Shown here: piece after piece, positions 1,915-40,092 of the stretch | Layout of the letters: each line of letters begins with the position of its first letter | How positions within the stretch are numbered: the first letter of the stretch is position 1 | Assembly: GCA_026770705.1 (NCBI GenBank) | Contig: JANJGN010000042.1 | Coordinates: 3,286,001-3,350,000 of the forward strand | Reading direction: 5' to 3' | Length of the DNA: 64,000 nt | Origin: Isurus oxyrinchus | Lineage: Eukaryota | Notes under the pieces: model-generated | Told to the model about the DNA's origin: nothing | The model's database searches: none | Seen by the model: the letters and a program-made list of their open reading frames with translations, nothing else | Position numbers and translations under genes: made by a program

Positions 1915-4856
1915 AACAATAACAGAATTACCTGGAAAAATTCAGCAGGTCTGGCAGCATTGACGGAGAAGAAAAGAGTTGACGTTTCGAGTCCTCGGGA
2001 CCCTTCAGCAGTACTGGTTGAATCCAAGAAGACGGGTGAAATATAAGATGGTTTAAGGTGGGGGGGGGGGGAGAAGTGGAGGGGGGGTGTGGTTGCAGGG
2101 ACAAGCAAGCAGTGATAGGAGCAGATAATCAAAAAATGTCACAGACTGAAGAACAAAAGAACACAGAGGTGTTGAGGTTGGTGATATTATCTAAACGAAT
2201 GTGCTGATTAAGAATGGATGGTAGGGCACCCAAAGTATAGCTCTAGTGGTGGTGGGGGGGCATAAAAGATTTAAAAATAATGGAAATACTTGGGAAAAGA
2301 AAAGTCTGTATAAATTATTGGAAAAAACAAAAGGAAGGGGGAAGAAACAGAAAGGGGGTGGGGATGGATGAGGGTGGACAAGATCTAAAGTTGTTGAATT
2401 CAATATTCAGACCGGAAGGCTGTAAAGTACCTAGTCGGAAGATGAGATGCTGTTCCTCCAGTTTGCGTTGGGCTTCACTGGAACAATGCAACAAACCGAG
2501 GACAGCCATGTGGGCAAGAGAGCAGGGTGGAGTGTTAAAATGGCAAGCAACAGGGAGGTTTGGGTCATTCTTGTGGATAGACCGTAGGTGTTCTGCAAAG
2601 TGGTCGCCCAGTTTACGTTTGGTCTCTCCAATGTAGAGGAGACCACATTGGGAGCAACAAATGCAGTAGACTAAGTTGGGGGAAATGCAAGTGAAATGCC
2701 GCTTCACTTGAAAGGATTGTTTGGGGCCTTGGATAGTGAGGAGAGAGGAAGTGAAGGGGCAGGTGTTACATCTTTTGTGTGGGCATGGGGAGGTGGGGGT
2801 TGAGGAGTAGGGGGTGATGGAGGAGTGGACCAGGGTGTCCCGGAGGGAATGATCCCTACGGAATGCCACCGGGGGGGTGCAGGGAAGATGTATTTGGTGG
2901 TAGCATCATGCTGGAAATGGCGGAGATGATCCTTTGAATGCAGAGGCTGGTGGGGTGATAAGTGAGGACAAGGGGGAGCATATTATGTTTCTGGGAGGAA
3001 GGAGAAGGCATGAGGGCAGATTCACGGGAGATGGGCCAGACACGGTTGAGGGCCCTATCAACGACCGTGGGTGGAAAACCTCGGTTAAGGAAGAAGGAGG
3101 ACATGTCAGAGGAACTGTTTTTGAAGATAGCATCATCAGAACAGATGCAACGGAGGCGAAGGAACTGAGAGAATGGGATGGAGTCCTTACAGGAAGCAGG
3201 GTGTGAGGAGCTGTAGTTGAGGTAGCTGTCGGAGTCGGTAGACTTGTAACAGATATTGGTGGACAGTCTATCACCAGAGATTGAGACAGAGAGGTCAAGG
3301 AAGGGAAGGGAAGTGTCAGAGATGGACCACGTGAAAATGATGGAGGGGTGGAGATTGGAAGCAAAATCAATAAATTTTTCTAAGTCCCGACGAGAGGATG
3401 AAGCAGCACTGAAGTAATCATCGATGTACCGGAGAAAGAGTTGTGGAAGGGGGCCGGAGGAGGACTGGAACAAGGCATGTTCCACATACCTCATAAAGAG
3501 ACAGGTGTAGCTGGGGCCCATGTGGGTACCCACAGCCACACCTTCTATTTCGAGGAAGTAAGAGGAGTTGAAGGAGAAATTGTTCAGCGTGAGAACAAGT
3601 TCAGCCAGACGGAGGAGAGTAGTTTGCGGATGGGGATTTTTCAGGCCTCTGTTCGAGGAAGAAGCTAAGGGCCCTCAGACCATCCTGGTGGGGGATGGAG
3701 GTGTAGAGGGATTGGACGTCCATCGTGAAGAGGAAGCGGTTGGGGCCAGGGAACTGGAAATTGTTGATGTGAGGTAAGGTGTCAGAGGAATCACGGATGT
3801 AGGTGGGAAGGGACTGGACAAGGGGAGAGAGAAGGGAGTCAAGATAATGAGAAATGAGTTCTGTGGGGCAGGAGCAAGCTGAGACAATCGGTCTACCGGG
3901 GCAGTTCTGTTTGTGGATTTTGGGTAGGAGATAGAAGCGGGCCATCCGAGGTTGGGCGACTATCAGGTTGGAAGCTGTGGGAGGGAGATTCCCAGAGGAG
4001 ATGAGGTCAGTGACAGTCCTGGAAACAATGGCTTGATGTTCAGTGGTGGGGTCATGGTCCAGGGAGAGGTAGGAGGAAGTGTCTGCAAGTTGACGCTCAG
4101 CCTCCGCAAGGTAGAGGTCAGTGCGCCAGACAACAACAGCACCACCCTTGTCAGCGGGTTTGATGACAATGTCAGGGTCGGACCTGAAAGAATGGAGTGC
4201 AGTAAGTTCAGAGAGAGACAGGTTAGAATGGGTGAGAGGAGCAGAGAAATTGAGACGACTAATGTCGCGCTGCTAGTTCTCAATGAAAAGATCAAGAGAA
4301 GGTAGGAATCCAGAGGGAGGGGTCCAGGTGGAGGGAGAATATTGAAGATGAGTCAAAGGATCTGTTGAACTGGGAGAGGACTCCTGCCCAAAGAAGTGAG
4401 CCTGGAGACGAAGACGGCAGAAGAAGAGTTCAGCATCGTGCTGAGCCCGAAATTCATTGAGGTGAGGGCGTAAGGGTATGAAACTAAGTCCTTTGCTGAG
4501 CACTGAACGTTCAGCATTGGAGAGGGGAAGGTCAGGGGGTATAGTGAATACACGGCTGGGGCTGGGATTGGAAGATGGGGTGGGGACGGAGGGACAGGCC
4601 GGGGTGGGGGGTACTAGATGGGTGTTGGTGTCAATGAGTTGTTGGAACTTGTGTTCCTTAGCACTTGAGAGAAAGAGAAAAAGTTTCTTGTTGAGGCATC
4701 GGATGAGCCGAAGGATAAAATGAAACTGGGGGCACGCGCAACTTTGAAAAAGGGTACGGCGGTGCTGCTGGAGGGAGAGGTCGAGTGTGTTCATATGGCG
4801 CCGCATGGCACTGAGTGTGGATTTCAGAATGTGATGGGAACAGCAGTCCGAGAAAT
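1915..4856 (-). mobile_element. Penelope-like retroelement (RT + GIY-YIG endonuclease), 5'-truncated, frameshifted
   Basis: ORF pieces give FYLLPKIHK, FTMDVQSLYTSIP, GVAVGT..GP, RYIDD (RT) and LVYCICCSQCGLLYIGETKR (GIY-YIG). The 3' tail with a hammerhead fold ends at ~1915. Confidence 0.93.
1977..2015 (-). ncRNA. Minimal type I hammerhead-ribozyme-like motif (core CUGCUGA)
   Basis: Minus strand: AGTA-CTGCTGA-A-GGGTC-CCGAG-GACTC-GAAA-CG-TC-AACT. Confidence 0.55.
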
Positions 4857-5157
4857 CCATTCTTAATTAGCACATTTGTTTAGATAATATCACCAACTTT
4901 AACTTTAACACCTATGTTGTTGACATCTTTTGATGATCTGCTTCTATCACTGCTTGTTTGTCCCTACAACCACACCCCACTCCACCTCTGTCTCTCTCTT
5001 TCTCTCTCCCCCCCCTCCACACACCTTAAACCAGCTTATATTTCAACTCTTTCTTGGATTCAAACTCAAGTTCTGTCGAAGGGTCATGAGGACTCGAAAC
5101 ATCAACTCTTTTCTTCTCCGCCAATGCTGCCAGACCTGCTGAGTTTTTCCAGGTAAT
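4857..5157 (+). mobile_element. Penelope 3' end/pseudo-LTR fragment, head-to-head with the element at 1915-4856
   Basis: Closely similar to 12030-12335. Confidence 0.9.
5069..5107 (+). ncRNA. Minimal hammerhead-like motif (core CUGUCGA)
   Basis: AGTT-CTGTCGA-A-GGGTC-ATGAG-GACTC-GAAA-CA-TC-AACT. Confidence 0.55.
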
Positions 5158-5159
5158 TA

Positions 5160-5833
5160 TATTAGTAATACCTGTCATACCTATGTCAATGACATAACCC
5201 AGGTAAGACGCCCACAGTGACTGCTGGTACGGGACCCCAGCCATGGGGCCCATTTGCACACCTACAAATGGACTTTATACAAATGCCTAAATCTATGGGA
5301 TATAATTATGTTTTAATTCTAGTGTGTTTGTTCTTGCGATGGGTGGAGGCGTATCCCACCCAATGCAATGATGCTGTTGTTGTAAAATTGTTCATTTTAC
5401 TGCTGAAGTGATAAAGGAACTGTTGAAGGCCTTACAATGCAACCATCACCTTTCCTGCCCATACCACCCCCGGTCTACTGGAGCGATGGCAGGACAAAAT
5501 AGTATTCTGAAAAACAAACTAGCTAAATTATGTGAAGAAACCAGTTTGAAAGGGCCTGAAGCTCTACCCTTGGCGCTCATGACTATGCGCTCTCACAGTA
5601 ACTGTCTCAAGAGCTCGCATATACAGGTAGTAGAAGCTCAGAAAAAGCCCACCACTGAAGACTGCCATCAATACCAGCCCGGGGACCTAGTCCTGGTAAA
5701 GACCTTCAGTAGAAAGAACTGTTTGGAACCTCGATGGGAAGAACCTTTCCAAGTCCTGCTCACCACCCATACAGCCATGAAGCTTGAAGGATGCACTTGT
5801 GGATCCACACATCGCACGTCAAACAGACGCTGA
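5160..5833 (+). mobile_element. Endogenous retrovirus pol (integrase), internally deleted
   Basis: HNPGK..PWGPFAHLQMDFIQMP..VCLFLRWVEAYPT, CPYHPRSTG, and the C-terminal module PGDLVLVK..LEPRWEEPFQVLLTT..WIH. Stops and frameshifts present. Confidence 0.92.
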
Positions 5834-5879
5834 CCTCGGACGGAAGTGCTTGTGCAAGAACTTTAACTGAGCCATCGGA

Positions 5880-6721
5880 ATGCTGACTCTGATTTGGATC
5901 CTGTCCTGCGTGGTCCTTGCAGGGGCATGGAATACCAATTCTGTGGTTCAACAAATACAGGCCGTAGCCTTGCAAGTTCATCAGACTAAATGTTGGATTT
6001 GTACTCATTTTCCTCAATGCAAAACAACAGCTGAATTGCATGAGAGAGTGGAAAGGACCCTATCTGGTGCTGCTAACAACTCGTACAGCCCTGAAGATTA
6101 AAGGGAAGGAAGATAGGGTCCAAGCCACTCGTTGTCTGGCAGCCCTGTAGCATCAGATATTCACCCGCATCTGCGTCTCCATCGTCGTAACATCTCAAAA
6201 TCTGAACGATGCTGGATGATTGCTATCCCCTCTTGTGGAACTGTGCGTAACTCCCGAGAGGTTATCAACCTGGCAGCTGCGCTTGAAAAATTTGCCAATT
6301 CGACGGAAAATGCTTTTATTGAGACCCAGAAACAGATTTCAGACACCACTGCTGAAATGTTAGCCCTACGCCTGACAGCTCAACAAAATAGAATGGCCCT
6401 TGATTTCCTCCTAGCTGAAAAAGGTGGCACTTGTGCCATAATAGGCTCAGAATGCTGCGCCTATGTGCCTGATGTTTCTGAGAATATTATTGACCTGGAA
6501 CAGCATGTTATGGATAAAGTGTGAGAAATAAAGAAAGTTGGGGAAAGGTTGAGCAGTGTTTATAACAAGGATTCCTGGCGGGCTACAGTAACGGGGTGGT
6601 TCGCCAGTTGGGAAAGTTAGCTGCTGATGTTTTAATTGGGTTAGTTTTATTAGGTGTTATAGGGTGTTGTGCATGTGCTACTATGAGGATTTGCTGTACC
6701 CATGTATTAATGGAGCTATGA
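5880..6721 (+). pseudogene. Retroviral env remnant (gamma-type)
   Basis: Signal peptide MLTLIWILSCVVLAG, CWIC motif, immunosuppressive domain QNRMALDFLLAEKGG followed by CAIIGSECC (CX6CC), hydrophobic anchor LLMFLIGLVLLGVIG. Stops present and SU is much shortened. Confidence 0.88.
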
Positions 6722-7148
6722 CTGGAGTCACCAGTGGATTAGGAGGAGCTCCCTTTGTCCCTCAATTGATACGCACTGGCCCCAGTGAAACCCCTGGTGG
6801 GGAGAAAAAGTTTACCCTGCCAGTGATTGGCCTTTTCCTTATGGTTATGAGCCCCCTTTTGATGATGAAGATGTGATTAATCTAAAAGATTAACAAGGAG
6901 GGATTGTTGAAGAAGAAAATACATCTATACTTATGAGAGAAAAAAACTAAAAATACATGTATAATGAAATTACTGTAGAATGTCCCCAAACAGTCACACA
7001 GCCAGCACATAAATTAGCAAATCAAAGGGCCAGTGCTACCTTCCCAGACAAAGGGGCTCCGGATGTCAGATACGGTGGCAAAATCTAAGAGAAAAAAACT
7101 ATTGTGTGTGCATTGCCCAGGATATGTAACCATTAACACTATCTATTT

Positions 7149-7285
7149 AAAACAAAGAAAACTGCGGATGCTGGAAATCCAAAACAAAAACAGAATTACC
7201 TGGAAAAACTCAGCAGGTCTGGCAGCATCGGCGGAGAAGAAAAGAGTTGACGTTTCGAGTCTTCATGACCCTTCGACAGAACTTG
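7149..7285 (-). mobile_element. 137-bp Penelope tail (hammerhead + 3' end) inserted into the LTR
   Basis: Flanked by a 14-bp TSD AACACTATCTATTT (7135-7148 and 7286-7299). Confidence 0.9.
7245..7283 (-). ncRNA. Minimal hammerhead-like motif (core CUGUCGA)
   Basis: Minus strand: AGTT-CTGTCGA-A-GGGTC-ATGAA-GACTC-GAAA-CG-TC-AACT. Confidence 0.6.
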
Positions 7286-7629
7286 AACACTATCTATTTG
7301 TTGAACCATCGACATTGTCCTCTCTATTTGCTAAACCATTGACATTGTCGTGTCTAATCGTTAAATCATTAACACTGATCGCTATCCTTTGAAACCATTT
7401 GAAACTATTGTAATTGCCCAAGTTTCTGTCACGAACCTTTTGCTATAGTTATGTGTGTAAAGCGGTGTTAGTTAGAGTGCCGGCTAGCTCTGTTCTATGC
7501 TGTTGGGCTCTCTGTGATATCACGATTATAATAAAAGGCTTCCGAGACAAACCTCCTGGGTCTGAGTGTTCACTCGGTTTTTCCGCAACAATTATGTATG
7601 TAGATGTAAGAAGGAAGTTGATAAAATAA

Positions 7630-8596: not shown

Positions 8597-9202
8597 CACG
8601 TGTCTCAAAGGGGAAAAGGGGGAAACAGAAAGGGGGTGGGGAGGAACAACACCTCATCTTCCGACTAGGCACCTTACAGCCTTCCGGTCTGAATATTGAG
8701 TTCAACAACTTTAGGTCGTGAGCTCCCTCCCCCATCCCCACCCCCTTTCTGTTTCCCCCTTTTCCCCTTTTTTTCCCTATAAATTTTATAGATTTTTCTT
8801 TTCCCACTTATTTCCATTATTTTTAAATATTTTAAAATCTTTTATGCTCCCTCCACCCCCACTAGAGCTGTACCTTGAGTGCCCTACCATCCATTCTTAA
8901 TTAGCACATTCGTTTAGATAATATCACCAACTTTATCTTTAACACCTATGTGTTCCTTTGTACCATTGTCGCTGACATCTTTTGATGATCTGCTTCTATC
9001 ACTGCTTGTTTGTCTACACAACCACCTCTATCTCTCTCTCTCTCTCCGCCCCACACACACACCTTAAACCAGCTTATATTTCAACTCTTTCTTGGACTCG
9101 AAATCAAGTTCTGTCGAAGGGTCATGAGGACTCGAAACGTCAACTCTTCTTCTCCACCGATGCTGCCAGACCTGCTGAGTTTTTCCAGGTAATTCTGTTT
9201 TT
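8597..9202 (+). mobile_element. Penelope 3' fragment (ORF C-terminus + tail) with a short inverted 5' piece
   Basis: 8641-9202 is nearly identical to 11778-12345; 8608-8641 is an inverted copy of ~8736-8768. Confidence 0.92.
9107..9145 (+). ncRNA. Minimal hammerhead-like motif (core CUGUCGA)
   Basis: AGTT-CTGTCGA-A-GGGTC-ATGAG-GACTC-GAAA-CG-TC-AACT. Confidence 0.6.
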
Positions 9203-9450
9203 GTTATACAAACTTATCCATCAGAGACTCCGGCTGAACAGAAAATGATATTGATGCACTGCCGCACAACCATCCCATTCCCTGTGATATATTGGTACGT
9301 TAAGCCTCCAAACCAGAGCCCAAAGTTGCTGATAATGGCGTCGACAAACGGTGAACAAAAAGGTCGATTTAGAGCCGTCAGTTGAAGCTTGGATAAAAGC
9401 AGCCCCCTGACTATCTCAGCTTTGAGTCTCACAGACACTTCTGTGCTGTA

Positions 9451-9489: not shown

Positions 9490-9984
9490 TCAGCTCCAGT
9501 TAGAACCGTATCTTTAGGAAGAAGAATTAATGAAGCAGATATTGACATTGGAGGATGAAGTAAAGTAGATTATAAAGAAATTGGCAGGAGGTTTTATGCC
9601 TATCTGTTTATGATTATACAATCTTTTCCACATGGAATGGTAAACCTACCCACTCAAATTAATTTTAGCTTATAACATCAACTAAGAGAAAAAGTTCGTT
9701 AAAATAACCTAGTCAACTTTACCTTCTAAAAGCTCTGTCCTGAAATTAAATATCTTCACTCCTAGGAGTTGTCGAACCAGTAAAATTAAATCAGAGTAGA
9801 ATATAACTACAGGCATATTATTCTGTGAAAGAAGCTCTTTTCAAGTTTACCACTACCAGCACTTAGAAGAGCTTGCTTATTCTAGGGTAAATATTGTTAT
9901 CAATATGTGGGTTTGTGAGGATTTCAGTGTGAGGCGACAGCTTTTGATTAATTACTTATGAATAAGTGAAATAGTATAAAATTT

Positions 9985-12347
9985 ACCCATTCTAACCTGT
10001 CTCTCTCTGAACTTACTGCACTCCATTCTCTCAGGTTCAACCCTGACATTGTCATCAAACCCGCTGACAAGGGTGGTGCTGTTGTTGTCTGGCGCACTGA
10101 CCTCTACCTCGCGGAGGCTGAGCGTCAACTCGCAGACACTTCCTCCTACCTCTCCCTGGACCATGACCCCACCACTGAACATCAAGCCATTGTTTCCAGG
10201 ACTGTCACTGACCTCATCTCCTCTGGGGATCTCCCTCCCACAGCTTCCAACCTGATAGTCGCCCAACCTCGGACGGCCCACTTCTATCTCCTACCCAAAA
10301 TCCACAAACAGAACTGCCCCGGTAGACCGATCGTCTCAGTTTGCTCCTGCCCCACAGAACTCATTTCTCGTTATCTTGACTCCCTTCTCTCTCCCCTTGT
10401 CCAGTCCCTTCCCACCTACATCCGTGATTCCTCTGACACCTTACGTCACATCAACAATTTCCAGTTCCCTGGCTCCAACCGCTTCCTCTTCACGATGGAC
10501 GTCCAATCCCTCTACACCTCCATCCCCCACCAGGATGGTCTGAGCGCCCTTAGCTTCTTCCTCGAACAGAGGCCCGAACAATCCCCATCCACCACTACTC
10601 TCCTCCGTCTGGCTGAACTTGTTCTCACGTTGAACAATTTCTCCTTCAACTCCTCTCACTTTCTCCAAATAAAAGGTGTGGCTATGGGTACCCACATGGG
10701 CCCCAGCTATGCCTGTCTCTTTATGGGGTATGTGGAACATTCCTTGTTGCAGTCCTACTCCGGCCCCCTTCCACAACTTTTTCTCTGGTACATTGATGAT
10801 TACTTCGGTGCCGCTTCATGCTCTCGTCGGGACTTGGAAAAATTTATTAATTTTGCTTCCAATCTCCCTCCCGCCATCATTTTCACGTGGTCCATCTCTG
10901 ACACTTCCCTTCCCTTCCTTGACCTCTCTGTCTCAATCTCTGGTGATAGACTGTCCACCAATATCCATTACAAACCCACCGACTCCCACAGCTACCTCGA
11001 CTACAGCTCCTCACACCCTGCTTCCTGTAAGGACTCCATCCCATTCTCCCAGTTCCTTCGCCTTCGTTGCATCTGTTCCGATGATGCTACCTTCAAAAAT
11101 GGTTCCTCTGACATGTCCTCCTTCTTCCTTAACCGAGGTTTTCCACCGACGGTCGTTGACAGGGCCCTCAACCGTGTCTGGACCATCTCCCGTGCATCTG
11201 CCCTCACGCCTTCTCCTCCCTCCCAGAAACATGATAGGGTCCCCCTTGTCCTCACTTATCACCCCACCAGCCTCCGCATTCAAAGGATCATCCTCCGCCA
11301 TTTCCGCCAACTCCAGCATGATGCCACCACCAAACACATCTTCCCTTCACCCCCCTTATCGGCATTCCATAGGGATCGCTCCCTCCGGGACACCCTGGTC
11401 CACTCCTCCATCACCCCCTACTCCTCAGCCCCCTCCTATGGCACCACCCCATGCCCACGCAAAAGATGTAACACCTGCCCCTTCACTTCCTCTCTCCTCA
11501 CCGTCCAAGGGCCCAAACACTCCTTTCAAGTGAAGCAGCATTTCACTTGCATTTCCCCCAACTTAGTCTACTGCATTCGTTGCTCCCAATGTGGTCTCCT
11601 CTACATTGGAGAGACCAAACGTAAACTGGGCGACCGCTTTGCAGAACACCTGCGGTCTGTCCACAAGAATGGCCCAAACCTCCTGTCGCTTGCCATTTTA
11701 ACACTCCACCCTGCTCTCTTGCCCACATGTCTGTCCTTGGCTTACTGCATTGTTCCAGTGAAGCCCAACGCAAACTGAAGGAACAACACCTCATCTTCCG
11801 ACTAGGCACCTTACAGCCTTCCGGTCTGAATATTGAATTCAACAACTTTAGGTCGTGAGCTCCCTCCCCCATCCCCATCCCCTTTCTGTTTCCCCCTTTT
11901 TCCTTTTTTTTCCCTATAAATTTTATAGATTTTTCTTTTCCCACCTATTTCCATTATTTTTAAATATTTTAAAATCTTTTATGCTCCCCCCACCCCCACT
12001 AGAGCTGTACCTTGAGTGCCCTACCAGCCATTCTTAAATAGCACATTCGTTTAGATAATATCACCAACTTTAACTTTAACACCTATGTGTTCTTTTGTAC
12101 CATTGTCGCTGACATCTTTTGATGATCTGCTTCTATCACTGCTTGTTTGTCTACACAACCACCTCTCTCTCTCTCTATCTCTCCGCCCCCCACACACACA
12201 CCTTAAACCAGCTTATATTTCAACTCTTTCTTGGACTCGAAATCAAGTTCTGTCGAAGGGTCATGAGGACTCGAAACGTCAACTCTTTTCTTCTCCGCCG
12301 ATGCTGCCAGACCTGCTGAGTTTTTCCAGGTAATTCTGTTTTTGTTT
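9985..12347 (+). mobile_element. Penelope-like retroelement, 5'-truncated, young
   Basis: Frame is open from at least IVIKPADKGG (10048) through RT (WYIDD) and GIY-YIG. One frameshift near 11680; natural stop at 11856-11858. Possible 8-bp TSD TAAAATTT (9977-9984, 12348-12355). Confidence 0.95.
12246..12284 (+). ncRNA. Minimal hammerhead-like motif (core CUGUCGA)
   Basis: AGTT-CTGTCGA-A-GGGTC-ATGAG-GACTC-GAAA-CG-TC-AACT. Confidence 0.6.
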
Positions 12348-12764
12348 TAAAATTTTAAATCCATGTTATTGAACAATCTTGATTTTCGAACAAATATTGA
12401 TTTGAAGAAGTTAAGTACTTACGATCCAGTACAATTTCTTAATAGTTTAGTGTGCCTTTCTCTTAACTTTTAAAAGGAATTCTCTCAGAACTCAACCCTT
12501 TGTGTCCTCAAGATGGCCGAGCTATGTCTCTGTGGTTGCTTGTCTGGGTAATGGCTTTTACAGGGGGCAAGTGTCTTCTCTCTGTAGCCTAGTGTACTAT
12601 CTTTACATTGGTAAACTTATCAGTTCCACCGTTGAATCAAGTATTGATGATCCATATTCCATATCATTCCGCCATACCACCAAACTGATGTTGTAGCTGG
12701 GAATTTCAGCACTAATTCCGTCCTTCTCTCTCCAACTCTCTCTCTTTCTCTCTCTGCCTTACTG

Positions 12765-24689: not shown

Positions 24690-27500
24690 TGCAAGTGCAC
24701 GTAGTGATGAATGGAGTTTGACTGCAGACAAAATCGCCATGTGGGGTTCTGCTATGGTGGAAGGAACAGGGAACTGACTCAATACCGGCTTGGATTAAAA
24801 ACTGAATTATTATTTCCATTATGTATCAGCAATGATGGGGAATGGAATAAAGAAGCAATGTTGGTCGAATGAAATGTTAAAGCGCTGGGGGGCGGGGAGA
24901 GGTGGTGGCGGGTTATGGGGGCGGGGGGGGGGGGATGGGGACGGTGGGGGATGATATCATTGCGTGCTCAAAGATGGATTCCATTTGGTTAACGTTAAGG
25001 AGCAAAAGAGGAACAGCTATGCTAGGATGTATACTCAGACCACCAAATTGTTGCAAGGAGATACAAGAGCATAAACAGAAAATGCTGGAAAAACTCAGCA
25101 GCACTGAAGAAGAGCCATACGGACTCGAAACGTTAACTCCTCTCTCTCCACAGATTTTGCTAGACCTGCAGAGTTTTTCCAGTATTTACTGCTTTTGTTT
25201 CAGATTTCCAGCATCCGCAGCATTTATGTGTATCTTAGATAAAGGAGGATATCTGTATGTTATTACTTTAAAAAAGAAGAAAAAAGTACACTGTTGATAA
25301 TGTGAACCTTCAATTATCCTAATTTAGACTGGGATATGATCTATACTAGGCCAAGAGAAGAGGTAATATTTTGAATTGAATGCAAGCACGACTTTACAGA
25401 ATCAGACTTTTAACGGCACAGAAGGAGGCCATTCGGCCCATTGTTTCCGTGCTGGCTCTCCAAGTGAGCATTATGACCTAGCATTGCCCTGCTATCCCCG
25501 TACTCCTTCACATTGTTTCTATTCAAATAATCATCTAATATTCTCTTGAATACGTCTATTGAACCTGCCTTCACCAGACTTCCTGGCGGCACATTTCACA
25601 TAATCAGTGTTTTTGTTCCCTCGCTCATTCAGTATGAGAACAGTGCTGGATCTGTGTCTGGGAATGAAGTGAGGCAACTGGAGCATATTTCAGTGGGTAA
25701 AGCTTTGTGAAAGAATGACCAAAATGTCAAGTTTAGAGAGGTTATGGAAAGGGGACAAACTCAATAAAGCACAAAACAAACATAAACATTAGTGAGTTCA
25801 GTGGGGATTTGACCCTGGCGCGTTGGAGTGAAAACAAAAACTGGCAGCAAAAGAGTAATTGTGGAATTGGAGGACTTCAAAGCGAAGATGATTCTGGGAA
25901 ATTGGAGGCACATTTTTACGAGGTGGAAAACAAGGGAATTCAAAGGCAGAGTTTCGTAAATAAGTAGATATATAGAGGTTAAAATGAAATGAGGAAAAGG
26001 CAGTTTTTGACAATGTTCTTTTCATATCACAATAGAAAACCAAGCTGAATCAAAAAGAATGTCGGGGTAATCTGAAAACATGAATTTCAGGGCAGTGTGG
26101 CGGGGGTGAGAGGGAGTTGGTGGGGATGGAAGGGGGGATTGGAGTTGCGGATAGTTTAGAGCAGTGAAAATATATCATTAAAATAGATTTGCTGCTGACA
26201 TAACAATGAAGCAAACCCCTTCTGTCAGCAGCAGGGCATCAAAGGATGTTTGGGCCCATTATGTCAAGATTCAGACCTTCTTGTAGAGGCAGAAAACAAA
26301 GCTCAAGCAATAAATGTCTACTTTGCATCTTTATTTGAGTAGCAAATGTTGCCAATGCAGACATAAAGATGGAAGCAACATTTCATTGGATAAAAATAGA
26401 GAAAGCGAAGGTATTTCAAGATTGTCCATCGCCAACCCTGGAAAGCCACCAACCTAAATCAGTGGCACCTTGAGTTAGCTAGGATGTAGGGGAGGACACT
26501 GTGGAGTTTCTGACCTGAAGCTGACAATCCTCCTTGTCTACGGGGATGGTGCCGCATGGCTTCAGGACTGCAAGTGTTACACCCCTGTTTATATATAGGG
26601 GAGAGGGGCGAACAAAGTAATTGCAGGCTAAAGATCCTAATGTTGGTGTAGAAAATGATTAAAGGCAATAGTCCGGGACAAAAATAATTTATATTTGAAA
26701 CAAAAGTCTGGGCTAATAAATGGAATTCTGTCTAACTGACTCGAATGCTGTGCTTTTGGTGAAGGCGTAATAAGCTTTGATAAGGACAATCTGGTTCATG
26801 TTGTCTGTATGAACTTGCAAACGTTGTTTACAAGTGAAACATTATCAAAATAAAAACTTATGATGTTAAAGAAACATGGAAACAGAACTTTCCAAACGGT
26901 TGGGTAACAGCGTACTGGTGAGCAGTTAATTTTTTTCAGACTAGAGAGCAGTATAAACGGCTGATCTGTAGTGGTCTGTATCAGGTCCACTGCTATTTTG
27001 ATGCCTATTAATAGGCTGGACTTAGGCATTCAGGGAATAACTTGAAAGTTAACAAATCATACTGACTCAAAAATGTGGTAAAGCATGAGGATTGTAAGAG
27101 TCTTCATGCGGATTTTGACTTGTCAGGTGAGCAAACATGTAACGTGTAACAATTAATATAGTTAAGCGTATATAGTGGCACATTTTGGTTGGTCGAATGA
27201 AGAAAGGCAATATTAATTAAATAGGATAAATTTAAGGAGTTCAAAAGACAGAGATGGTGTACAGACACAGATCCTTTAACGGGACTGGGCAATTGGAAAG
27301 ACATGAATAGCTTATAGGATCTTTTATTTTATTTAATAAGGGATTACAAAACAGAAGCAAGGAAGTTATGAAAAATGTTCAGAAACAATTGCGTAGGCCT
27401 TCGCTGTCGTATTGCATCCAATTCTGGACACCATACTTCAGGGCAAATGACAAGAACTTAGAGATGGTGCTGATGAAACTTATTAGAATTATTTAGGGTG
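24690..27500 (+). mobile_element. Old fragmented CR1 ORF2 with nested insertions
   Basis: Endonuclease-like ..GCILRPPN.., ..ASVTPLF.. and ..IQFWTPYF.. remnants. Confidence 0.55.
25070..25225 (+). mobile_element. Tiny fold-back Penelope-tail element containing a canonical-core hammerhead
   Basis: AAACAGAAAATGCTGGAAAAACTCAGCA is inverted relative to TGCAGAGTTTTTCCAGTATTTACTGCTTT. Between them lies CTGAAGA-A-GAGCC-ATAC-GGACTC-GAAA-CGTT-AACT (25104-25138). Confidence 0.7.
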
Positions 27501-29414
27501 AAGGAATTTCGTTCAGATGAAACGTTAGTATTCACTGCATTCAGAATAAAAACAATCACTAACCCGAAAAACCCAACATCCAGATCAGTAAATATCAAAA
27601 ACCCACAACTCCAACATCCAGACCATAAATATCATTAACCCCACATCCATAACATCCAGAATCCTCACTATCATTAACCCCACATCCCGAACATCCAGAG
27701 TCCACACTACTATTATTCCCACATACCTATCATTAACCTGAAAATCCCAACATCCAGAAACATAAATTTCATTGACCCCACTTTCTCAACATTCAGAATT
27801 GTCGCTATCACTAACTCCATTCCAAACATCTAGAATCCTCACAGTAATTAACCATGTTACCAACATTCCGAGTTCTCACTATGACTAATCCCATTCACAA
27901 CAACCAGACTCCTCACTATTACTAACACCGTCCTCAAAATCTGGAATCTGCACTAGAACTAAACTTATTCCCAACATTCAGAATCCTCATTATCACTAAA
28001 CACATTTACAACATCCAGCGTCTTCATTCTCATTAACATCGTTCCCAAAATCCATATTCCTCGTTATCATTAACCCCAATCACAACATCCAGATTCCTCA
28101 CTTACACTAACCCATTCCAATCATCCAGAATCGCTACTATCTTTGACCCCATTCCCAACACCCAGAATCCTCAGTATCACTAACACCATTCTCAAAATCC
28201 GGAATCTGCACTACACTAAACCTATTCCCAAATTTCAGGATCCTCACTACTGCTAACCCCATTCCCAACATCTAGATTCTTCACAATTTGCTGACCACAT
28301 TCACAACTTCCATATTCCTAATGATCACTAACACCTTTCCCAAGATCCAGATTCTTCATTATCATTAACCCCATTCCCAACATCCAGAATCGTCACTATC
28401 ACTGACCCCATTCCCAACATCCAGAACCCTCAGAATGAAAAATTCTATTCCCAACATGAGGAATCCTAAACATTATGAAGGAAATTTGCTACATCCCGAA
28501 TCATCACTATCATTAGCCCCATATTCCTAACATCCGGAATTCTCATTGTCACGAACCCCATTCCAAAAATCCGGAATCCTCACTATCATATATCCACATT
28601 CCAGGATTCTCACTGTCAAGAACTCCATTCCCAACATTCAGAATTCTCACTATCACTAACCCAACACTCTCAACATCCAGAATCCTCACAATCACAAACT
28701 CCAATTGAAACATCCAAGTTCCTCACTATCACTAACCCCATTCCCAACATCCAAATCTCCACTAGCACTGAATCCACATTTCCAACATCCAGAATCCTCA
28801 AAATACGAACGTGCTTCCCAAAATACAGCATTCTCACTATCACTAACACAGTATTCGCAAAATCGAGAAACCTCACCATCACTGATCCCACAACCTGAAA
28901 TCCAGAGACCTCATCAGCACTGAGCGCACAACCCAAAACCAGAAACGACATCATCACAGACCTCATAACCCAAACATCCAAAATCCTCACTACTACAATG
29001 ACAATCCCAGCATCTAGGCTCCTAACTTATCATTGAATATATTCCCAACATTCAGAATCTGCGTTATCAGTAACTCCATTCCCAACATCCAGAGTACTCA
29101 CTATCACTGACCCACAACCCAAACATCCAAAATCCTCACTATTAGTAACGACAATCCCAGCATCTAGGTTCCTCACTTATCATTGAATACATTCCCAACA
29201 TTCAGGATCCTCACGATCACTAGCTCCATTTCCAACATCCAGAATCCTCACTGTCACAGACCCACATTTGCAACATCTAGAAACTTCACTGCCACTAACT
29301 CCATTGCAAACATCCAACATCCTCTCTTCACTAACCCAATTCCCAGCATCCAGCATCCTCACCCTCACTAACCCCATTACCAGCATTCAGAATTCTCAAT
29401 ATCACTATATTTTT

Positions 29415-30345
29415 TGTTTTGTTATATTCATTCGTGTCATTTGGGGCGCCGCTGTCTAGGCCAGCATTCATTAACCATCCCGCATCGCGCTTGAGAAGGT
29501 GGTTGATGAAATGCCTCATTGAACCGCTGCAGTCCATGTTGTGTAGGTACACACACAGAGCTGTTAGGGAGGGAGTCCAAGGATTTTGACCCAGCAACAG
29601 TGAAGGAACGGTGATATAATTCCAAGTCAGAATAGTGAACGTCTTGAGCAGGAACTTCCAGATGATGGTGTTCCCATGTGCCTGCTGCCCTTGTCCCTCT
29701 CGATGATAGCGGCCATGGGTTTCGATGCTGCTGTCGAATGAGCATTGGTAAATTCCTGCAGTGCATCTTGTAGATGATACACTGCGCCTGTGCATCGGTG
29801 GTGGAATGCAGTGAATGCTTGTGGATGTTGTACTAATCAAGTGGCCTGGATTTGGATCAGTCCGATCTTCTTAATTGTTGTTGGAGTTTCACTCAGCTGG
29901 GCAAGTGAAAAGTATCCCATCACACACCTGACGTGTTTGTTGATGGTGGACAGGCTTTTGTGGAGTCAGGAGGTGAGTTATTCGCCACAGGATTCCTAGC
30001 TCCAGAGCTGCTCTCATCGCCATTGTAGTTCTATGTCAATTCCAGTTCAGTTTCTGGTCAATGATAACTCCCAGGTTGTCGATAGTGGGGGATTGGGTGA
30101 TGGTAAAGCAGAATGTCAAAGGGCATCTTTAGATTATCTCTTGTTAGAGACAATGATTGCCTGGAACCTGTGCGGTGTGAAAGTTGCTTGCTACTTGTCA
30201 GCCCAGTCCAGATCTAGTTGCATTTGTTCAGGGCTGCTTCAGTACCTGAGGAGTCGCGATTTGGTTCTGAATATTGCACAATCATAAGCGAGCATTCTCA
30301 CTTCTCACCTTATGATGGAAGGAACTTCATTGATGAAAGAGCTGT
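29415..30345 (-). mobile_element. CR1-clade LINE 3' portion inside the minisatellite (copy 1)
   Basis: Same family as 17790-18968. Confidence 0.85.
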
Positions 30346-30633
30346 GCCTCGGGAATTCTCCACTAACCCTGCTTTCCCAACTTCCAGATTCCTCCCTTAT
30401 GCTAACCACACATCCCCAAAATTCAGAATCCGCCCTATCAGTAACCCCACATTCCCAACATTCAGAATGCTCACTATCACTAAAGCCACATTCCCAGTAT
30501 CCAGAAATCTCACTATCAATAAACCACACTCCCAACATTCTGAAAACTCTCTATCACTAGCCCCATTCCCAAAAGTCAGAATCCTCAATATCACTAACCT
30601 TATTGCCAATATATAGAATCCTCACTCTCATTA

Positions 30634-30907
30634 CAATAATAAAAACAAAAGAACTGCAGATGCTGGAAATCCAAAACAAAAGCAGAATTACCTGGAAAAA
30701 CTCAGCAGGTCTGGCAGCATCGGCGGAGAAGAAAAGAGTTGACGTTTCGAGTCCTCATTACCCTTCGACAGAACTTGAGTTGGAGTCCAAGAAAGAGTTG
30801 AAATATAAGCTGGTTTAAGGTGTGTGTGTGGGGGGCAGAGAGATAGAGAGAGAGAGAGGGGTGGGGGAGGGGTTGCGGGTGTGGTTGTGAGGACAAACAA
30901 GCAGTGC
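30634..30907 (-). mobile_element. Penelope 3' tail insertion with hammerhead-like motif at 30737-30775
   Basis: 16-bp TSD ATCCTCACTCTCATTA (30618-30633, 30908-30923); core CTGTCGA. Confidence 0.9.
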
Positions 30908-31149
30908 ATCCTCACTCTCATTAACCTCATTTCCAATGTACAGAATCCTCACTCTCACGAATCCCATTGCCAATATCCGCAAGCCTCACTATCACTAACA
31001 CCACATTTCCAGTATCCAGAATCCTCACTATCAATAAACCACACTCCCAACATTCTGAAACCTCACTATCACTAGCCCCATTCCCAACTTCCAGAATACT
31101 CCCCATTACTAACATCATTCCCAACATCCAGAATTCTCACTGTCACTAT

Positions 31150-32110
31150 TTTTATTTATTATTATTCATTCATGGCATTTGGTCATTGGTGACTAGGCCT
31201 GCATTCATTAACCAACCCTAATTGCCCTTGAGAAGGTGGTGGTGATCTGCCTCATTGAACCGCTGCAGTCCATGTGATTTTGGTACACCCGAAGAACTGT
31301 TAGCAAGGGACTCCAAGGATTTTGACCCAGAGACATTTAAGGAACAGCGATATATTTTTCCAAGTCAGAATGGTGAGTGGCTTGAGTTGGGATGTCCAGG
31401 TGCTGGTATCCCCATATATCTGCTGCGCTTGCCTTTCTGTATGGTAGCGGCCATGGGCTTAGAAGCTGCTGTCGAAGGAGCCTTGTTGAGTTCCTGCAGT
31501 GCATCTTGTAGATGGTACACAGTGCTGTCAATGTGAGTCGGTGGTGGATGGACTGAATGTTTCTGGATGCTGTGCCAGTCAAGTTGCCTGTTTTGTCTTG
31601 GATCGGGTCCAGCTTCTCAAGTATTGTTGGAGCTTCACTCAACCAGGCAAGTGGCGAGTATCCCATCACACTCCTAACTTGTGTTTGTAGATAGTGGACA
31701 GGCTTTTGTGGAGTAAGGAGGTGAGTTACTGGTCGCAGGATTCCTAGCCCCTGGCCTGCTCTTGTTGCCATTGTAGTTCTCTGTCAATTCCAGCTCAGTT
31801 TCTGATCAATGTTAACCCCCAGGATGCTGGAGCGAGGAATTCAGCGATTATAATGCCGTTGAATATCAAGCAGCATGGTTAGATTCATTCTTGTCAGAGA
31901 AAGTCATTGCTTGGCATTTGTGTGGTGCGACGTTTGCTTTCCACTTGTCAGCCCAGTCCAGATCTAGTTGCAATTGTTCATGTGCTGCTTCAGTACCCGA
32001 GGAGTCGCGATTTGGCTCTGAACATTGCAAAATCATAAGTGAACATTCTCACTTCGGATCTTATGATAGAAAGAAGGTCATTGATGAAAGTGCTTAAGAC
32101 GGTTGGGCCT
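31150..32110 (-). mobile_element. CR1-clade LINE 3' portion inside the minisatellite (copy 2)
   Basis: Shares diagnostic deletions and junction with 29415-30345. Confidence 0.85.
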
Positions 32111-34844
32111 CTGAAATTACACACTAACCCCACTTTCCCAACTTCCAGAATCCTCCCTATCGCTAATCCAACAATCCCAACATCCAGATTCCAGTCTCTT
32201 GCTAACCCGTCTTCCAACTTCCAGAGTCCTCACTATCACTAACTCCACGTTCCCAAAATCCAGAATCTCACTAGCACTAACATCACATTCACAATATGTG
32301 GAATCCTCACTATCAGCAAACCACACTTCCAACATCCAGAATTCTCAAAATACCTAATCCCACATTCCCAACATCCAGGACCCTCACTATCACTGACAAA
32401 GTCCCAAGATACAGAATTCTCACTGTTACTAAACCACCCTCCTCACATGCAGGACCCTCACTATCACTACCCCCACTTCCCAACATCCAGAATGCTCATA
32501 ATCAATAACCCCACGCTGCCAAATTCTAGAATCCCCTCCATCACTGTCCCTGCATTCCCAATGCCCAGAATGCCTCACGATCGCTAACAAAGACTCCCAA
32601 CATCCACACTCCTCACTATCACTAAACCATACTCCCCACATGCAGAATCCTCACTGTCACAAACCCGACGCTGCCAACATCCAGAACCCTCTCTATCACT
32701 AGCCGCACACTCCCAACATCAAAGCCCTCAGCATCACTAGCCCTACTTTCCCAATATCCAGCATCCTCACTATTACTAACCCAGCAATCCCATCACCCAG
32801 AATCATCTCTAACACTAACTGCATTCCCTATATCCAGAATCTTCACTGTCATTAAACCAACATTCAAAATCCTCACTATCACTAACCGCACATTCCCAGC
32901 ATCCAGAATCCTCACTATTACTAACCCCACATTCCTAAAATTCAAGTCCTCACTATCACTAACCCTATTCCCAAATTCAGCGCCCTCATTATCACTAACC
33001 CCATTCCCAACATCAAGAACATTCACGATCACTAACCCCACACTCCAATCATCAATAATCGTCACTATCAGTAACTCCACACTCACAACATCCAGAATCC
33101 TCACTATCACTAATCCCGAACTCCCAGCATCCAAAACGCCCACCATCGTATCCCCGCACTTCCATCACCCAGAGCCCTGATCGCTAACCTCAAACATCGT
33201 CACCCAGATAACTCACCCCTCGGCCGCCCCACCTTCTCATTACTCAGAGAGCTTATCATGAATAACCCCAGCCTCCAACATCAACCTCCTTCACCATGAA
33301 GCCTCCCAAATTTGTAACACTAGGAATCCTTTTTGTTACCAGTCACTCAGTTTTCCAATATCATTCATACGATTTATTATCACATATCGCCCCCAAAAGT
33401 GAATCTCCTCAAATTATCGTCGTACCTGGAGCCTCATGAGTGAAGTATCTCTGTCGTGCCACACAGGCCGATTAGTATTCTTTTCTCTATGAGCTAGAGC
33501 CAGAATTTGAACTAAGGTCCATTTTCCCTTCCTAGGAACACTCTATTTCACTAACTTCTACAATTATATTAACTCTAAACATTGTGGTATTGTTACTGCT
33601 TTCAAGGCGCTGATCACTCAGAATCCTTTCAGCCTCCAACAATAAGTCTGATACTCAGGGTCTCCGCTGAACTGCACGCTGCCATAATCCAGAGCTCTCT
33701 CAAATTCTTCATGCTCCTCTTTAGTCGCCTAGATTCTTACCCATCATCCAAACCCTCGCTGCCATTGTCCAGCCTCCACTCAGTCACTAATATCTATACT
33801 GCCATCTCGTACAAACCTGTTCTGCCACTGCTTGGAGCAGACAGATGGTCCTGGGAAACAAGGAGCATTCTATTCTTTAGCAGATCGTTCGGTAGGATAT
33901 TTAATTTCTGCACAAACTACTAAGGCGACCAGGTTCTCCTTAATTACTATTTGTCACTCAAGACATTTGTTGCAATGCAGCCGGATAATCGGCAGTATGA
34001 ACTCTGTGAAGTTAGGCTTTGAATCGGACTCTCTCCCTTCTGATTGCCAGGTAGAACCGTCCTAGCAAAACCTTGTGGACTACCACAAAACAGGCTTAGA
34101 AGGGTTATTGTACTTATCGACCCTGAGAAATGTTAAAGGGAGATAACCCAATGTACATTAAAGAATATTGGTAATTAGAGTTAAATGTGAAGTGATTGGG
34201 TTACTAGGTCTGTGACAGTGCGAGATCAGCTGGAGATGTTCTCTGTAATCTCCTTCGATCACCTCCTTATCATTTCCCAGGGATGTTTTTTAGTCTAAGA
34301 TCCCCGGTTATCTATTTCTACACTTACAATTAAATGCCCGCTTATATTTCTCAAATTCGAAATAATCTTCAATTAAATAAATGTGAACAATATTTTCTGG
34401 GTTTGAGATGGAGCAGAGGCAGCGAATTAATTCAGGCTAAAAAGATAACTGCGCTGTCTTCTTTCTAATTTTATTCAGCCAACATCCTGTTTTTCTGCTG
34501 CTGTGCAAAACCACAGGCAGCGTGTCCTGCAGTAAATCAATACACAGAGCTTTATGTACCGGTTGCAGCCTGCACCTGGCAGCACGCAGCACCGGCCTGA
34601 AAAGCTATGTGCTGAAGTGTACGTCTATCATTTTATGTCAGAATTAACAATATGAAGATGATTTGTAGCATTGAAAATGAACGGAACTGTTTTGGATCTC
34701 AGCAAATGACAAGGACCCCGCCGTTCTCATTCTTTAGGTCCCTCTGTCTTTTGTTCCTCTTTGCTTCTACTTGCATCGACAGTCTAACACAATCTCCTGT
34801 CTATCTCTCTGCCTCACTATCTGCCGCCACCTCTTTCTTCTTCT

Positions 34845-34916: not shown

Positions 34917-34975
34917 CATCTATCCAACTGTCTATCTCCCTATCAATCAATCAACCTATCTATCTCCCTAACTAT
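34845..34975. repeat. (CTAT)n microsatellite within a CT-rich tract
   Basis: Seen directly. Confidence 0.95.
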
Positions 34976-35586: not shown

Positions 35587-35665
35587 GGCTGAAAATCGAC
35601 TTCGGTAGAGGTGAATCCGTCATTACCCGATCGATGGCGATTACACACTGGTCAATTTTCCACCC
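35587..35665. mobile_element. Small hairpin, MITE-like
   Basis: GGCTGAAAATCGAC..GTCAATTTTCCACC with inner GTGAATCCGTCAT..ATGGCGATTACAC imperfect inverted repeats. Confidence 0.4.
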
Positions 35666-36639: not shown

Positions 36640-38210
36640 AACAGTAATCTATTCCTGTAATAGCCCTCAAATTAAATATCAAGACTCCATCACTTGATAA
36701 AATTCACGTTAAATGACCAAAAATCCAATTATTTAACATACCTCAGAGCAATTAAGCAATGTCCCATTGATGTTATATCCCTCACTTTAAATGATAAATA
36801 ATTCATTGGTGAATTATATCACGTTTCAAATGAACAAATTCCAATCACTGTAATATAACTCGCAATAATTGAACAATAATCCATTTTTCATACTTTTCAC
36901 ATTACATTAATAATGCTTCCTAGCAACAATATATCTCAAATTAAATAAAGAATAATCCATAAAGGTAATATCAATCACATTAAATGAACGGTAATTCATT
37001 GTAACTCTGTAACTCACAAGAAATGAACAATAATCTATTGCTCTGATATGTCTCACTTTAGAGGAACAATGTTGCACTGCTGCAATACTCATATATTAAA
37101 TGAAAATGCATGCCATTACTGCAGAGTCACAATTAAATGAATAATAATCTTTATATTTAATATAACTCACAACAAATATTCAATAATCCATTTCTGCCAT
37201 AATCTTGACATGCAATTAATACTAATCAATTGTTGTCACATATCAGACGGTAAAGGAAAAATAATCCAGTGTTGTAGTATCCCTCACATTAAAAACAATA
37301 ATGCATTGCTGCAATATAACTCATTTTAAATGATGAATAATCCATTGCTCCGAGGCAGCTTACATTAATTGATCAATAATCCACTCCTGTAATATTCCCC
37401 AAATTAAACGAATACTAATTCCTTGCCATAATGTACAAGGCTTTAAAGTAATCCTGATTCATTGCTGCAATGCATGAAACGAACAAAAATCTAGTGCTGT
37501 GATACCCCTTACCTGAACTGAATAATCTATTCCTTTAATAAACTCACTCCAAAGGAGCAATCACTGTAATATCCCTGAAATGTAATGAACATTACTTCAT
37601 TTCTTCAATATGCAACATATTAAATGCACACTGATCTATTGCTCAAATATCCCTTATAATAATTGAAAATAATCATTTTTTGTAATATATGTCATATGAA
37701 ATGAAAAGTAATGTATATATTTGATATCCCTTGCGTTAAACAAGCAAAACTCTACGATTGAAATATCCTCCAAATTAAATGAACACTGACGCATTGCTGT
37801 TGTATACCACAAAGTACTTGAACATTAGTCCATTAGTTTCAGGTGCAACATATTAAGTGAATAATAACCCATTTCTGTATTATAGCACACTTTATTTAAC
37901 AACATTCCATTGCTGGAGTACAGCTCACATAACATGATTTAGTTATATATCTGTAACACCCCTCACATTAATGAACAATAATCCATTACTATAAGAAGCT
38001 AATAATTTCTTGTCGCTTTATTACCCCTCACGTCAAACGAATAGTAAATTATCATCTTTTCTGATATACTTCACACTGAATGGGAAATATCTCAGTGTTG
38101 TAAGGTATCACAGATGAAATGAATAATAATCATTCATTGTGACATATTCCTTACATTCCAAGGGCATTAACCGATTATTACATGTAAAGTTAATAACATT
38201 CATTGCTCTT
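36640..38210. repeat. Highly degenerate ~39-bp AT-rich minisatellite
   Basis: Consensus approximately AAATGAACAATAATCCATTGCTGTAATATCCCTCACATT; period visible at 37021/37060/37098. Confidence 0.85.
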
Positions 38211-39526
38211 TTAAGAGTCTGTCTTGTGTTTGCTTGTCGTATTCCTCGAGATATCTTTTATTCGTAAAGGTTAGGTGTGGAAATTGGAATCACCCTGTTT
38301 GGTTTTGAGTGAACGTGAATAGTATGTATGCTTCCCACTTGAAATTTTTCATAAATGATTTGAAAGTTGGCCATTTCCTTGTGCTTTATTTTTACAGCAG
38401 CAGTGCCCCTAAGAATTACTTCTGAAAATAACCTGAGTCGTTTTTTTGCCCAGAGTGTTAGAAATGAACGCAATAATGTGTTAGTTTTCATTCACTGTCA
38501 GCATCAAGCTCAGCTTTTAGCGCTGAACCAGTTATGCGGCTGCCGCCTCAGTAAGCTCACATGCCCAGGCAGATCTGTCGTGTTTGTGTATTTGCAGCTT
38601 TCCTGAGTGCAGCTAGAGTGTTAGCAAGTTGATTTTACTGACTTATATCTTTTACAACTGATCGGGAAGGCAGACAAACCACACTTGCAAAAAAACATAT
38701 AGTTTGATTGTTTTTTTGTTGTAGTTTGTCAAATAATAATGTAAATACCACGTTAATCTGCAAAACTAACCGAACTATCAGGTCCAGGGGAAGAAATGTA
38801 ATTCGATTGGTCAAATGATATAAACAAACACGTTTACAAAAGGAAGGAATTTTTTTGGCCCATCGTGTGCGCGCTCTCCTGGAGAAAAGTAAAGTGACCC
38901 CGAGTACTGCTCAGTCTCCTCATCTTACTTTGTTTAAAAATGGATTGAAAGGTGCATTAATATCCACCTCAGTCGCTGCCTGAGGTGAAGAACTCTACTC
39001 TGTATTGCAAATATATTGGGGAAAACGTCGTTTTGCTATCGCAATATCTTTCATTAAAGCAGAAGTACTATCTGGCACATTACAGAACAGGAGTAATCCT
39101 CTACAAACAACTCTACACCTCTTAGCGTTCAGTGAGAGACAGAATTGATTTTCTCCATTGTCATCCAATCTCTACAAACACTGTTACTGAGAATTAAGAA
39201 TCAATTTGTTTCAAAAGTGAAGCCCATGGCAGCGTGGATATTGGTTGGGGGACTGCAAGCAGGTAGTTGTGGTAAATGGTTATTTTAAGGCAGGATGGTA
39301 TATTTTCTTGATTGGAACAATTAGCAAATAAAGCAAATTAAAGGGAATTAAATTAATACAAATTAAATAAATTAACAAATCAAATAGCCAGGTAATCCCT
39401 TAAAGGGACAGACTGGAGGGTATGTGCGAACAAATTTCCGAAATTGGCAGGCGGATTTGAGAAGGCTGCAAAAAAGACACAAACGGGCCTTGACTTTGAA
39501 TGCAAAGACAAAAAGGTAACAAGGGA

Positions 39527-40092
39527 AAACAAAAACAGAATTACCTGGAAAAACTCAGCAGGTCTGGCAGCATCGGTGGAGAAGAAAAGAGTTGACGTTT
39601 CGAGTCCTCATGACCCTTCAACAGAACTTGATTTCGAGTCCAAGAAAGAGTTGAAATATAAGCTGGTTTAAGGTGTGTGTGTGGGGGGCGGAGAGATAGA
39701 GAGAGAGAGAGGTGGTTGTGTAGACAAACAAGCAGTGATAGAAGCAGATCATCAAAAGATGTCAGCGACAATGGTACAAAAGAACACATAGGTGTTAAAG
39801 TTAAAGTTGGTTATATTATCTAAACGAATGTGCTAATTAAGAATGGATGGTAGGGCACTCAAGGTACAGCTCTAGTGGGGGTGGGGTGAGCATAAAAGAT
39901 TTTAAAATATTTAAAATAATGGGAAAAGAAAAATCTATATAATTTATAGGGAAAAAAAAGGAAAAAGGGGGAAACAGAAAGGGGGTGGGGATGGGGGAGG
40001 GAGCTCACGACCTAAAGTTGTTGAATTCAATATTCAGACCGGAAAGCTGTAAGGTGCCTAGTCGGAAGATGAGGTGTTGTTCCTCCAGTTTG
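39527..40092 (-). mobile_element. Penelope 3' fragment with hammerhead-like motif at 39590-39628
   Basis: Nearly identical (inverted) to 11771-12347; core CTGTTGA. Confidence 0.92.

Follow-up and report, generated by a model that had tools for sequence, protein, structure and literature searches.

What does a hammerhead ribozyme do for a retrotransposon that has replaced one of its catalytic letters and kept multiplying? The question is raised by a 64,000-nt stretch of the genome of the shark Isurus oxyrinchus (GCA_026770705.1, contig JANJGN010000042.1, positions 3,286,001 to 3,350,000 of the forward strand; hereafter the window, at its full length), in which copies of a Penelope-like element (PLE) carry a hammerhead motif whose core departs from the canonical CUGANGA at position 6. 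The purpose of Penelope hammerheads is itself an open matter: their cleavage is slow, insertion in vitro still occurs with dead mutants, and one PLE clade manages without such motifs. An initial annotation of the window had described seven copies with a pyrimidine at position 6. We located all seven at the positions and on the strands given (Table 1); six read U6 (five CUGUCGA, one CUGUUGA) and one, the copy at 1977, reads C6. The three older relatives that were said to keep CUGAAGA all read A6-A7. In the copy at 12246, which serves here as the reference, C3 is nucleotide 12250, position 6 is 12253 and the predicted cut follows 12280.

A pyrimidine at position 6 across the genome

We counted exact words over 4.98 Gb of genome sequence, a procedure that underestimates old copies. 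The 31-mer with U6-C7 matched 60,876 times and the corresponding A6 word 138 times, and the reversed U6-C7 word, used as a control for chance, gave no match. Among the matches listed for the A6 word (100 of 138), 49 were A6-C7, or an estimated ~68 overall, compared with 91 for a control T-to-A change in loop II. A6 revertants are therefore present at the level of mutation, with no amplified revertant. Broader exact descriptors returned 76,181 matches for U6 with GGGUC, 4,203 for U6 with GAGUC, 3,639 for A6 and, with a slightly different search word, 1,771 for C6; in all, more than 80,000 copies matched by exact descriptors carry U or C there. A sample of 137 evenly spaced 10-kb stretches contained 140 copies, 85 of them spanning positions 3-7. 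Copies with the younger loop read U6 in 48 of 48 cases, and the 37 older copies read A in 27, U in nine and G in one. The possibility that the seven copies are atypical of a family with the consensus CUGANGA is rejected by the 31-mer counts and by the younger-loop copies. Rather, a pyrimidine is the family consensus, U6 is its norm, and the U6 hammerhead is carried by the most abundant PLE family of the genome.

C6 is likewise not private to the copy at 1977, as 47 C6 copies occur among the matches listed in one search (100 of 1,553), and the C6 clade of the tree described below has C6 in 11 of its 12 members, in a sample partly picked for that letter. When the flanks of the C6 branch were searched with C3 to A9a left free, the matches listed (100 of 1,471; counted by hand) held 45 C, 55 U and no A at position 6, together with ten scattered changes, at most three per position, at the other free core positions. 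Position 6 alone is therefore polymorphic at the source level. A second species, represented by 80,634 raw DNA reads, has the same family, with no other position-6 letter among the matches listed (40 of 137).

Hammerhead architecture

The motif has the minimal type I fold that the initial annotation had ascribed to it. Stem I, a stem II with G10.1-C11.1, an extra nucleotide after A9, a palindrome at 15.1-16.1 and an NUH triplet are all present, and the remaining canonical core is kept (C3, U4, G5, G8, A9, G12, A13, A14, A15.1-U16.1 and H17); at position 6, U or C stands in place of the A of CUGANGA. Across the motif alignment 94.6% of stem cells are paired, and 98.6% in stem II. A minimal-hammerhead descriptor with position 6 left free gave 49 hits in 1.37 Mb, 44 of them U6, and none in three shuffles, which means that the commonest hammerhead-like motif in this genome escapes searches based on CUGANGA.

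The evidence for covariation of the stems is mixed: relative to a sister A6 family, two stem II pairs are swapped on both sides (AGGUC/GACCU), but two-sided change was found neither for stem I in that comparison nor inside the lineage. For the sister family, the matches listed (100 of 945; counted by hand) include 45 rows with a short loop, of which 34-35 have the swapped stem. This is a separate, older PLE family of the same genome, with canonical A6-U7, stem II AGGUC/GACCU and a 3-nt loop.

No Rfam hammerhead model matched the window copies at E up to 5. Monomers showed no folding advantage over shuffles (z -0.2 to +1.9), as expected of a motif without helix III. In cofolding, both A6 and U6 gave best predicted dimers that lay 3.5-7.3 kcal/mol below a partial dimer model (two stems II and the ACGU duplex, stem I being left out), and thermodynamics therefore does not discriminate. 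A direct tandem of a short hammerhead-plus-tail unit at L056:1500-1640 would set two motifs ~100 nt apart as a ready dimer.

The host element

The hammerhead lies on the coding strand, close to the 3' end of the 580-bp pLTRs (pseudo-long terminal repeats) that bracket a reverse transcriptase (RT) frame. A tandem of three units at L191 has a period of ~3.35 kb and U6 in every unit, and one unit contains a 918-aa open frame, counted from its first Met, with the hammerhead ~170 nt upstream of that Met. This frame contains DKG and YIDD motifs, a CX4CX2C linker (CPRKRCNTC, at residue 784) and a GIY-YIG-type end (VYCI..YIGET and RFAEH). A CX2-5CxxC linker between RT and endonuclease (EN) marks the Neptune or Nematis clades (PMC8557442). 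By its motifs we place the element as a Neptune-type Penelope-like retrotransposon, although the linker would also fit Nematis. Its combination of RT, linker and C-terminal GIY-YIG resembles that of Neptune EN-containing (EN+) PLEs, as do the structural traits of EN+ elements that are present here, namely partial-tandem pLTRs, inverted 5'-truncated copies and an optional 30-40-nt tail (Craig 2021, PMC8557442).

An RNA run labelled as a coral metagenome contains 37% of the element's words and gave 318 contigs, probably through carry-over of fish nucleic acid.

One A6-to-U change and later waves of copies

We constructed a tree of 99 pLTRs, mostly picked by pattern search, following an earlier tree of 85 copies. 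The pLTRs form a single ladder, from A6A7 through A6U7, U6U7 (GAGUC, GUU) and U6U7 (GGGUC, GUC) to a C6U7 branch that includes the copy at 1977 and finally to U6C7; many of the short nodes have support below 0.9. Median terminal branches down the ladder are 0.18, 0.067, 0.058, 0.035 and 0.015, agreeing with the order in the tree. The change from A6 to U has one origin, at path length 0.36 with the tip at 0.77, which leaves ~0.4 substitutions per site along the lineage before the youngest copies. Near the motif, late A6U7 and early U6 groups are set apart only by position 6 and by a single base each in the loop and in the tail. With 9-11 A6U7, 10 old U6 and 36 U6C7 copies sampled, the large expansion is the last step of the ladder, long after the change, and the C6 sub-lineage was also amplified later than the change.

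The initial annotation had assigned the variant to a young family. Recent copies do carry a pyrimidine at position 6, but the change is older than the young burst. Nor does the variant mark a recent lineage for all seven copies, because the copy at 1977 belongs to an older C6 sub-lineage; its element is 90.7% identical to that of the copy at 12246 in the region of the open reading frame (ORF) and ~81% identical in the pLTR.

These copies provide a natural, ordered allele series (A6A7, A6U7, U6U7, C6U7 and U6C7) in one background, each allele from sources that left many copies. The series makes the purpose of the Penelope hammerhead testable with 40-nt RNAs.

Apparent constraint on the remaining core

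We compared living copies pairwise, 10 old against 22 young U6 copies. None of the 13 other core columns and none of the eight stem I columns differed, and one of ten did in stem II, whereas 76 of 347 upstream pLTR columns (22%) differed; for core plus stems (1 of 31 columns) the binomial P is ~0.005. Within the motif five columns changed, namely N7, pair 10.2 (A-U to G-U), two loop II bases and H17 (U to C). All five are positions at which hammerheads tolerate change, and the change at 10.2 keeps the pairing. The search words had left the changed positions free, so the test was repeated on unselected copies (10 versus 33), in which the identical five columns had changed. Of 38 columns, seven are free, and four of the five changes fall within those (P 0.002). 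Changes after A6U thus lean toward a core that is still constrained.

Ends of copies and reverse transcription

The 3' ends of copies form two peaks, at ~+97 and ~+132 from C3, which is 66 and 101 nt past the cut site. By analogy with a published Anolis element (PMC11167929), these peaks in the tail are likely to be start sites of reverse transcription. Sixty-two of 65 young copies extend 5' through the cut site; 33 of the 65 have their 5' end at -15 to +14 around C3 and one has it near the cut site. For older copies, whose alignment ends are less reliable, the corresponding counts are 26 and four of 75. A 5'-end peak at +31, the predicted cut, is thus absent in both age classes, and the idea that cleavage leaves a mark in the copy ends is rejected. 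As copies run through the cut site before and after the A6U change, their templates were uncut or rejoined in both periods. The initial annotation had also suggested that the fold might serve as an RT recognition signal. Such a signal more likely resides in the separately conserved downstream tail than in the hammerhead core (Frangieh 2024, PMC11167929).

Both 5' ends and head-to-head inversion junctions cluster at the first stem I bases, in U6 and in older A6 copies (for example at window 7245-7290 and at L192:4188). Of the inversion joints listed for the second species, those with the most support (87 and 76 reads) fall at the first stem I base. This pile-up may represent a transcription start or an RT stop; the start of stem I matches YYAGTT, which we take to be initiator-like. 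In older subfamilies, positions -24 to -3 from C3 of the pLTR (window 12226-12247) hold a pyrimidine tract and a YAG that ends at the stem I AG, similar to a 3' splice site. The tract is 85-91% pyrimidine, compared with 72-73% in the rest of the pLTR, and is eroded in the young family. A donor-like CAG/GTAWTT lies at +80 from C3 (window ~12330) and is present from the A6U7 stage onward. A search of the upstream part of the pLTR for the donor of an intron ending at the stem I AG, like that of Penelope in D. virilis, gave no conserved candidate.

A proposed slowed ribozyme and its alternatives

Taking as established the element type, the U6 norm and its single origin, the later C6 branch, the otherwise unchanged core and the copies that cross the cut site, we favor a strongly slowed ribozyme with a core shape still under selection, in an element that would transpose from uncut RNA; on sequence evidence we give this reading an even chance of being correct. 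The source lineage would have swapped A6 for U once and kept multiplying. Stems I and II would form, and two motifs would pair through the ACGU palindrome. RNA from the upstream pLTR would have one motif near its 5' end and a second ahead of its 3' tail, to which the element's protein would bind, starting cDNA 66-101 nt past the site of cleavage. If the 3' pLTR were cut after GUC, the coding RNA would lose that start site. Rapid cleavage would therefore hinder transposition, whereas a slower ribozyme would be tolerated and would cost the element little. Rare cutting, perhaps protein-assisted, would explain why the other core positions stayed fixed.

Published data are in line with such a mechanism. 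Loss of A6 slows hammerheads without always abolishing cleavage (PMC3088659, PMC7151607). The natural A6C hammerhead of phage Bcep176 shows slow but detectable cleavage that improves in Mn2+ (PMC3088659, PMC7151607), with a kobs below 0.1 per min in one study (PMC3088659) and rates of 0.004 per min in 1 mM Mg2+ and 0.31 in 1 mM Mn2+ in the other (PMC7151607). Mutants of CUGA have low activity (PMC9901934), and the hammerhead of an Anolis PLE needs the element's protein in order to cut, although dead mutants still insert in vitro (PMC11167929). The present result agrees with such published hints of Penelope hammerheads that act slowly and can be dispensed with in vitro.

Several observations weigh against the slowed ribozyme. 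The published activity concerns C6, and U6 is not separately reported in the literature covered. The case for conservation rests on five changes, and the 13 core columns alone give P 0.04, or 0.11 conditional on five changes. The tail beside the hammerhead is equally conserved (1 of 33 columns), and a shared non-catalytic constraint could therefore hold the core. Two-sided covariation inside the lineage was found in none of nine pairs. Older A6 copies also mostly pass the cut site, so the ends do not separate U6 from A6. The A6U change cannot by itself be credited with the burst either; with 36 U6C7 and 10 old U6 copies and the expansion much later, the idea that it was the trigger is unsupported.

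A possible though doubtful alternative is that the U6 motif no longer cuts and has been kept for another job at the 5' end, as a promoter or initiator, a protein-binding fold, or an RT stop or inversion boundary. The clustering of 5' ends and inversion junctions around C3 and the joints of the second species would suit such a role, as would the conservation of the tail alongside, but the pile-up is older than the A6U change. Naiad PLEs, moreover, proliferate without canonical hammerheads (PMC8557442). Changes since A6U, on the other hand, hit catalytically free positions, which is unexpected for a promoter or a plain hairpin. Folding of the monomer predicts a hairpin in which U6 pairs with A15.1 (-9.2 versus -6.8 kcal/mol for old U6); this hairpin was weakened again by C7 and C6, so it is not what was kept, and selection of U6 for a new helix is rejected on the same grounds. 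We also consider, as an unlikely variant, a protein-gated switch or non-cutting 5' signal: Y6 would stop spontaneous cleavage, full-length RNA would stay the template and the core would mark where reverse transcription stops and inverts. If that were true, nature would have recorded, in the shark series A6, U6 and C6, how a ribozyme takes on a new role.

The motif might instead be a neutral relic with too little time for further decay since A6U. Its five changed columns of 39 are near the upstream median of seven, and the conservation of the hammerhead window is matched by 31% of upstream windows of 39 columns, a figure that also counts against the slowed ribozyme. Given the ~0.4 substitutions per site that have elapsed, the contrast between upstream columns and core plus stems, and the pair that was kept, we regard a relic as quite improbable. 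Least probable of all, and hardly to be expected, is full activity, the loss of A6 being offset by dimer formation, by the additional A that follows position 9, by the element's protein or by a metal (Mn2+, for example). The good activity of A6C in Mn2+ (PMC7151607), the protein assistance shown for the Anolis PLE (PMC11167929) and the intact rest of the core would allow it, but no compensating change accompanied A6U, and pairwise mutagenesis found no rescue within CUGA except the 3-8 swap (PMC9901934).

Relation to known hammerheads

A catalog by Lünse and colleagues reportedly contains about 150,000 PLE hammerhead variants. No natural U6 hammerhead was found in the literature searched, which did not cover that catalog (Lünse et al. 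2017), and the catalog may list U6. The minimal hammerheads of metazoan PLEs (Cervera and de la Pena 2014, PMC4209133) are alike in lying on the sense strand in both pLTRs and in having a short stem I, an extra nucleotide between 9 and 10.1, G10.1-C11.1 and a palindromic 15.2-16.2 in place of helix III. Their descriptor fixes A6, in contrast to the U6 and C6 copies described here, and the sole core variant named, in the accessible part of that paper, is U3-A8; a CUGU or CUGC core was not found in the two of its supplement files that were searched. The phage Bcep176 hammerhead (Perreault 2011, PMC3088659; Naghdi 2020, PMC7151607) shares the natural loss of A6 with the other core intact, but is a single phage copy with C6, whereas the present motif belongs to a eukaryotic retroelement in which both U6 and C6 were amplified in many waves.

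PAc, a Poseidon element of Anolis carolinensis (Frangieh 2024, PMC11167929), also has its hammerhead near the 5' end and uses uncut RNA as the main template, and it has two internal sites of RT initiation, corresponding to the two 3' ends seen here, in body and tail. In PAc, however, cleavage needs C3 and G8 and the hammerhead overlaps the start codon, whereas here the motif precedes the first Met and the linker is of the Neptune Cys type. The accessible text of Li et al. 2026 (bioRxiv 10.64898/2026.07.22.740005) includes one chondrichthyan and lacks the words 'catalytic core', and that of PMC3846280 and PMC11014351 has nothing on position 6.

Features of the window

Table 1. Hammerhead copies and Penelope-like features, in window coordinates.
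Feature	Position	Strand	Remarks
Older, broken Penelope-like copy	1914-4866	-	carries the C6 hammerhead
Hammerhead copy	1977-2015	-	C6-U7 (CUGCUGA); older amplified C6 sub-lineage; stem I mismatch and loop change
Hammerhead copy	5069-5107	+	U6-C7; G16.2 lost, leaving triplet AUC and a broken palindrome; within inverted pLTR piece 4855-5164
Hammerhead copy	7245-7283	-	U6-C7; one loop change; short solo copy starting a few bases 5' of stem I
5' pLTR	8642-9221	+	ORF end, ~400 nt non-coding, hammerhead, tail; 96% identical to 11779-12364
Hammerhead copy	9107-9145	+	U6-C7; 5' pLTR of the partial tandem shared with copy 12246
5'-truncated Penelope-like ORF	9970-11778	+	RT, CX4CX2C linker, GIY-YIG-type endonuclease; Pfam RVT_1 E 2e-07; frame shift near C-terminus
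3' pLTR	11779-12364	+	96% identical to 8642-9221
Hammerhead copy	12246-12284	+	U6-C7; 3' pLTR; minimal type I
Conserved tail	12281-12348	+	3' of the cut site; copies end there or ~35 nt beyond
Older relative	25100-25138 (core 25104)	+	canonical A6-A7, CUGAAGA
Hammerhead copy	30737-30775	-	U6-C7; one stem II mismatch
Hammerhead copy	39590-39628	-	U6-U7, U7 probably by CpG decay of C7; in pLTR 39526-40092
Decayed older relative	51761-51799 (core 51795-51789)	-	A6-A7, CUGAAGA
Decayed older relative	53207-53245 (core 53211)	+	A6-A7, CUGAAGA

Elsewhere in the window, positions 5372-6524 (+) contain broken retrovirus-like pieces with an integrase C-terminal domain (PF18697) and an envelope (PF00429). 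A V-set hit (E 4e-14) at 40458-40913 (+), next to the pLTR of the copy at 39590, marks a V segment of an immunoglobulin or T-cell receptor. A C2H2 zinc-finger repeat array with an 84-bp period occupies 500-1270 (-), and degenerate tandem repeats of 37 bp and 39 bp lie at 27500-33200 and 36750-37900. Fragments of long interspersed elements (LINEs) at 51881-56385 and 62298-63998 look CR1-like from their translations; together with the V segment and the PLE itself, they would point to a cartilaginous fish. Finally, a 251-aa frame at 60935-61690 resembles a G-protein-coupled receptor, of which its DRF-like motif is presumably a sign.

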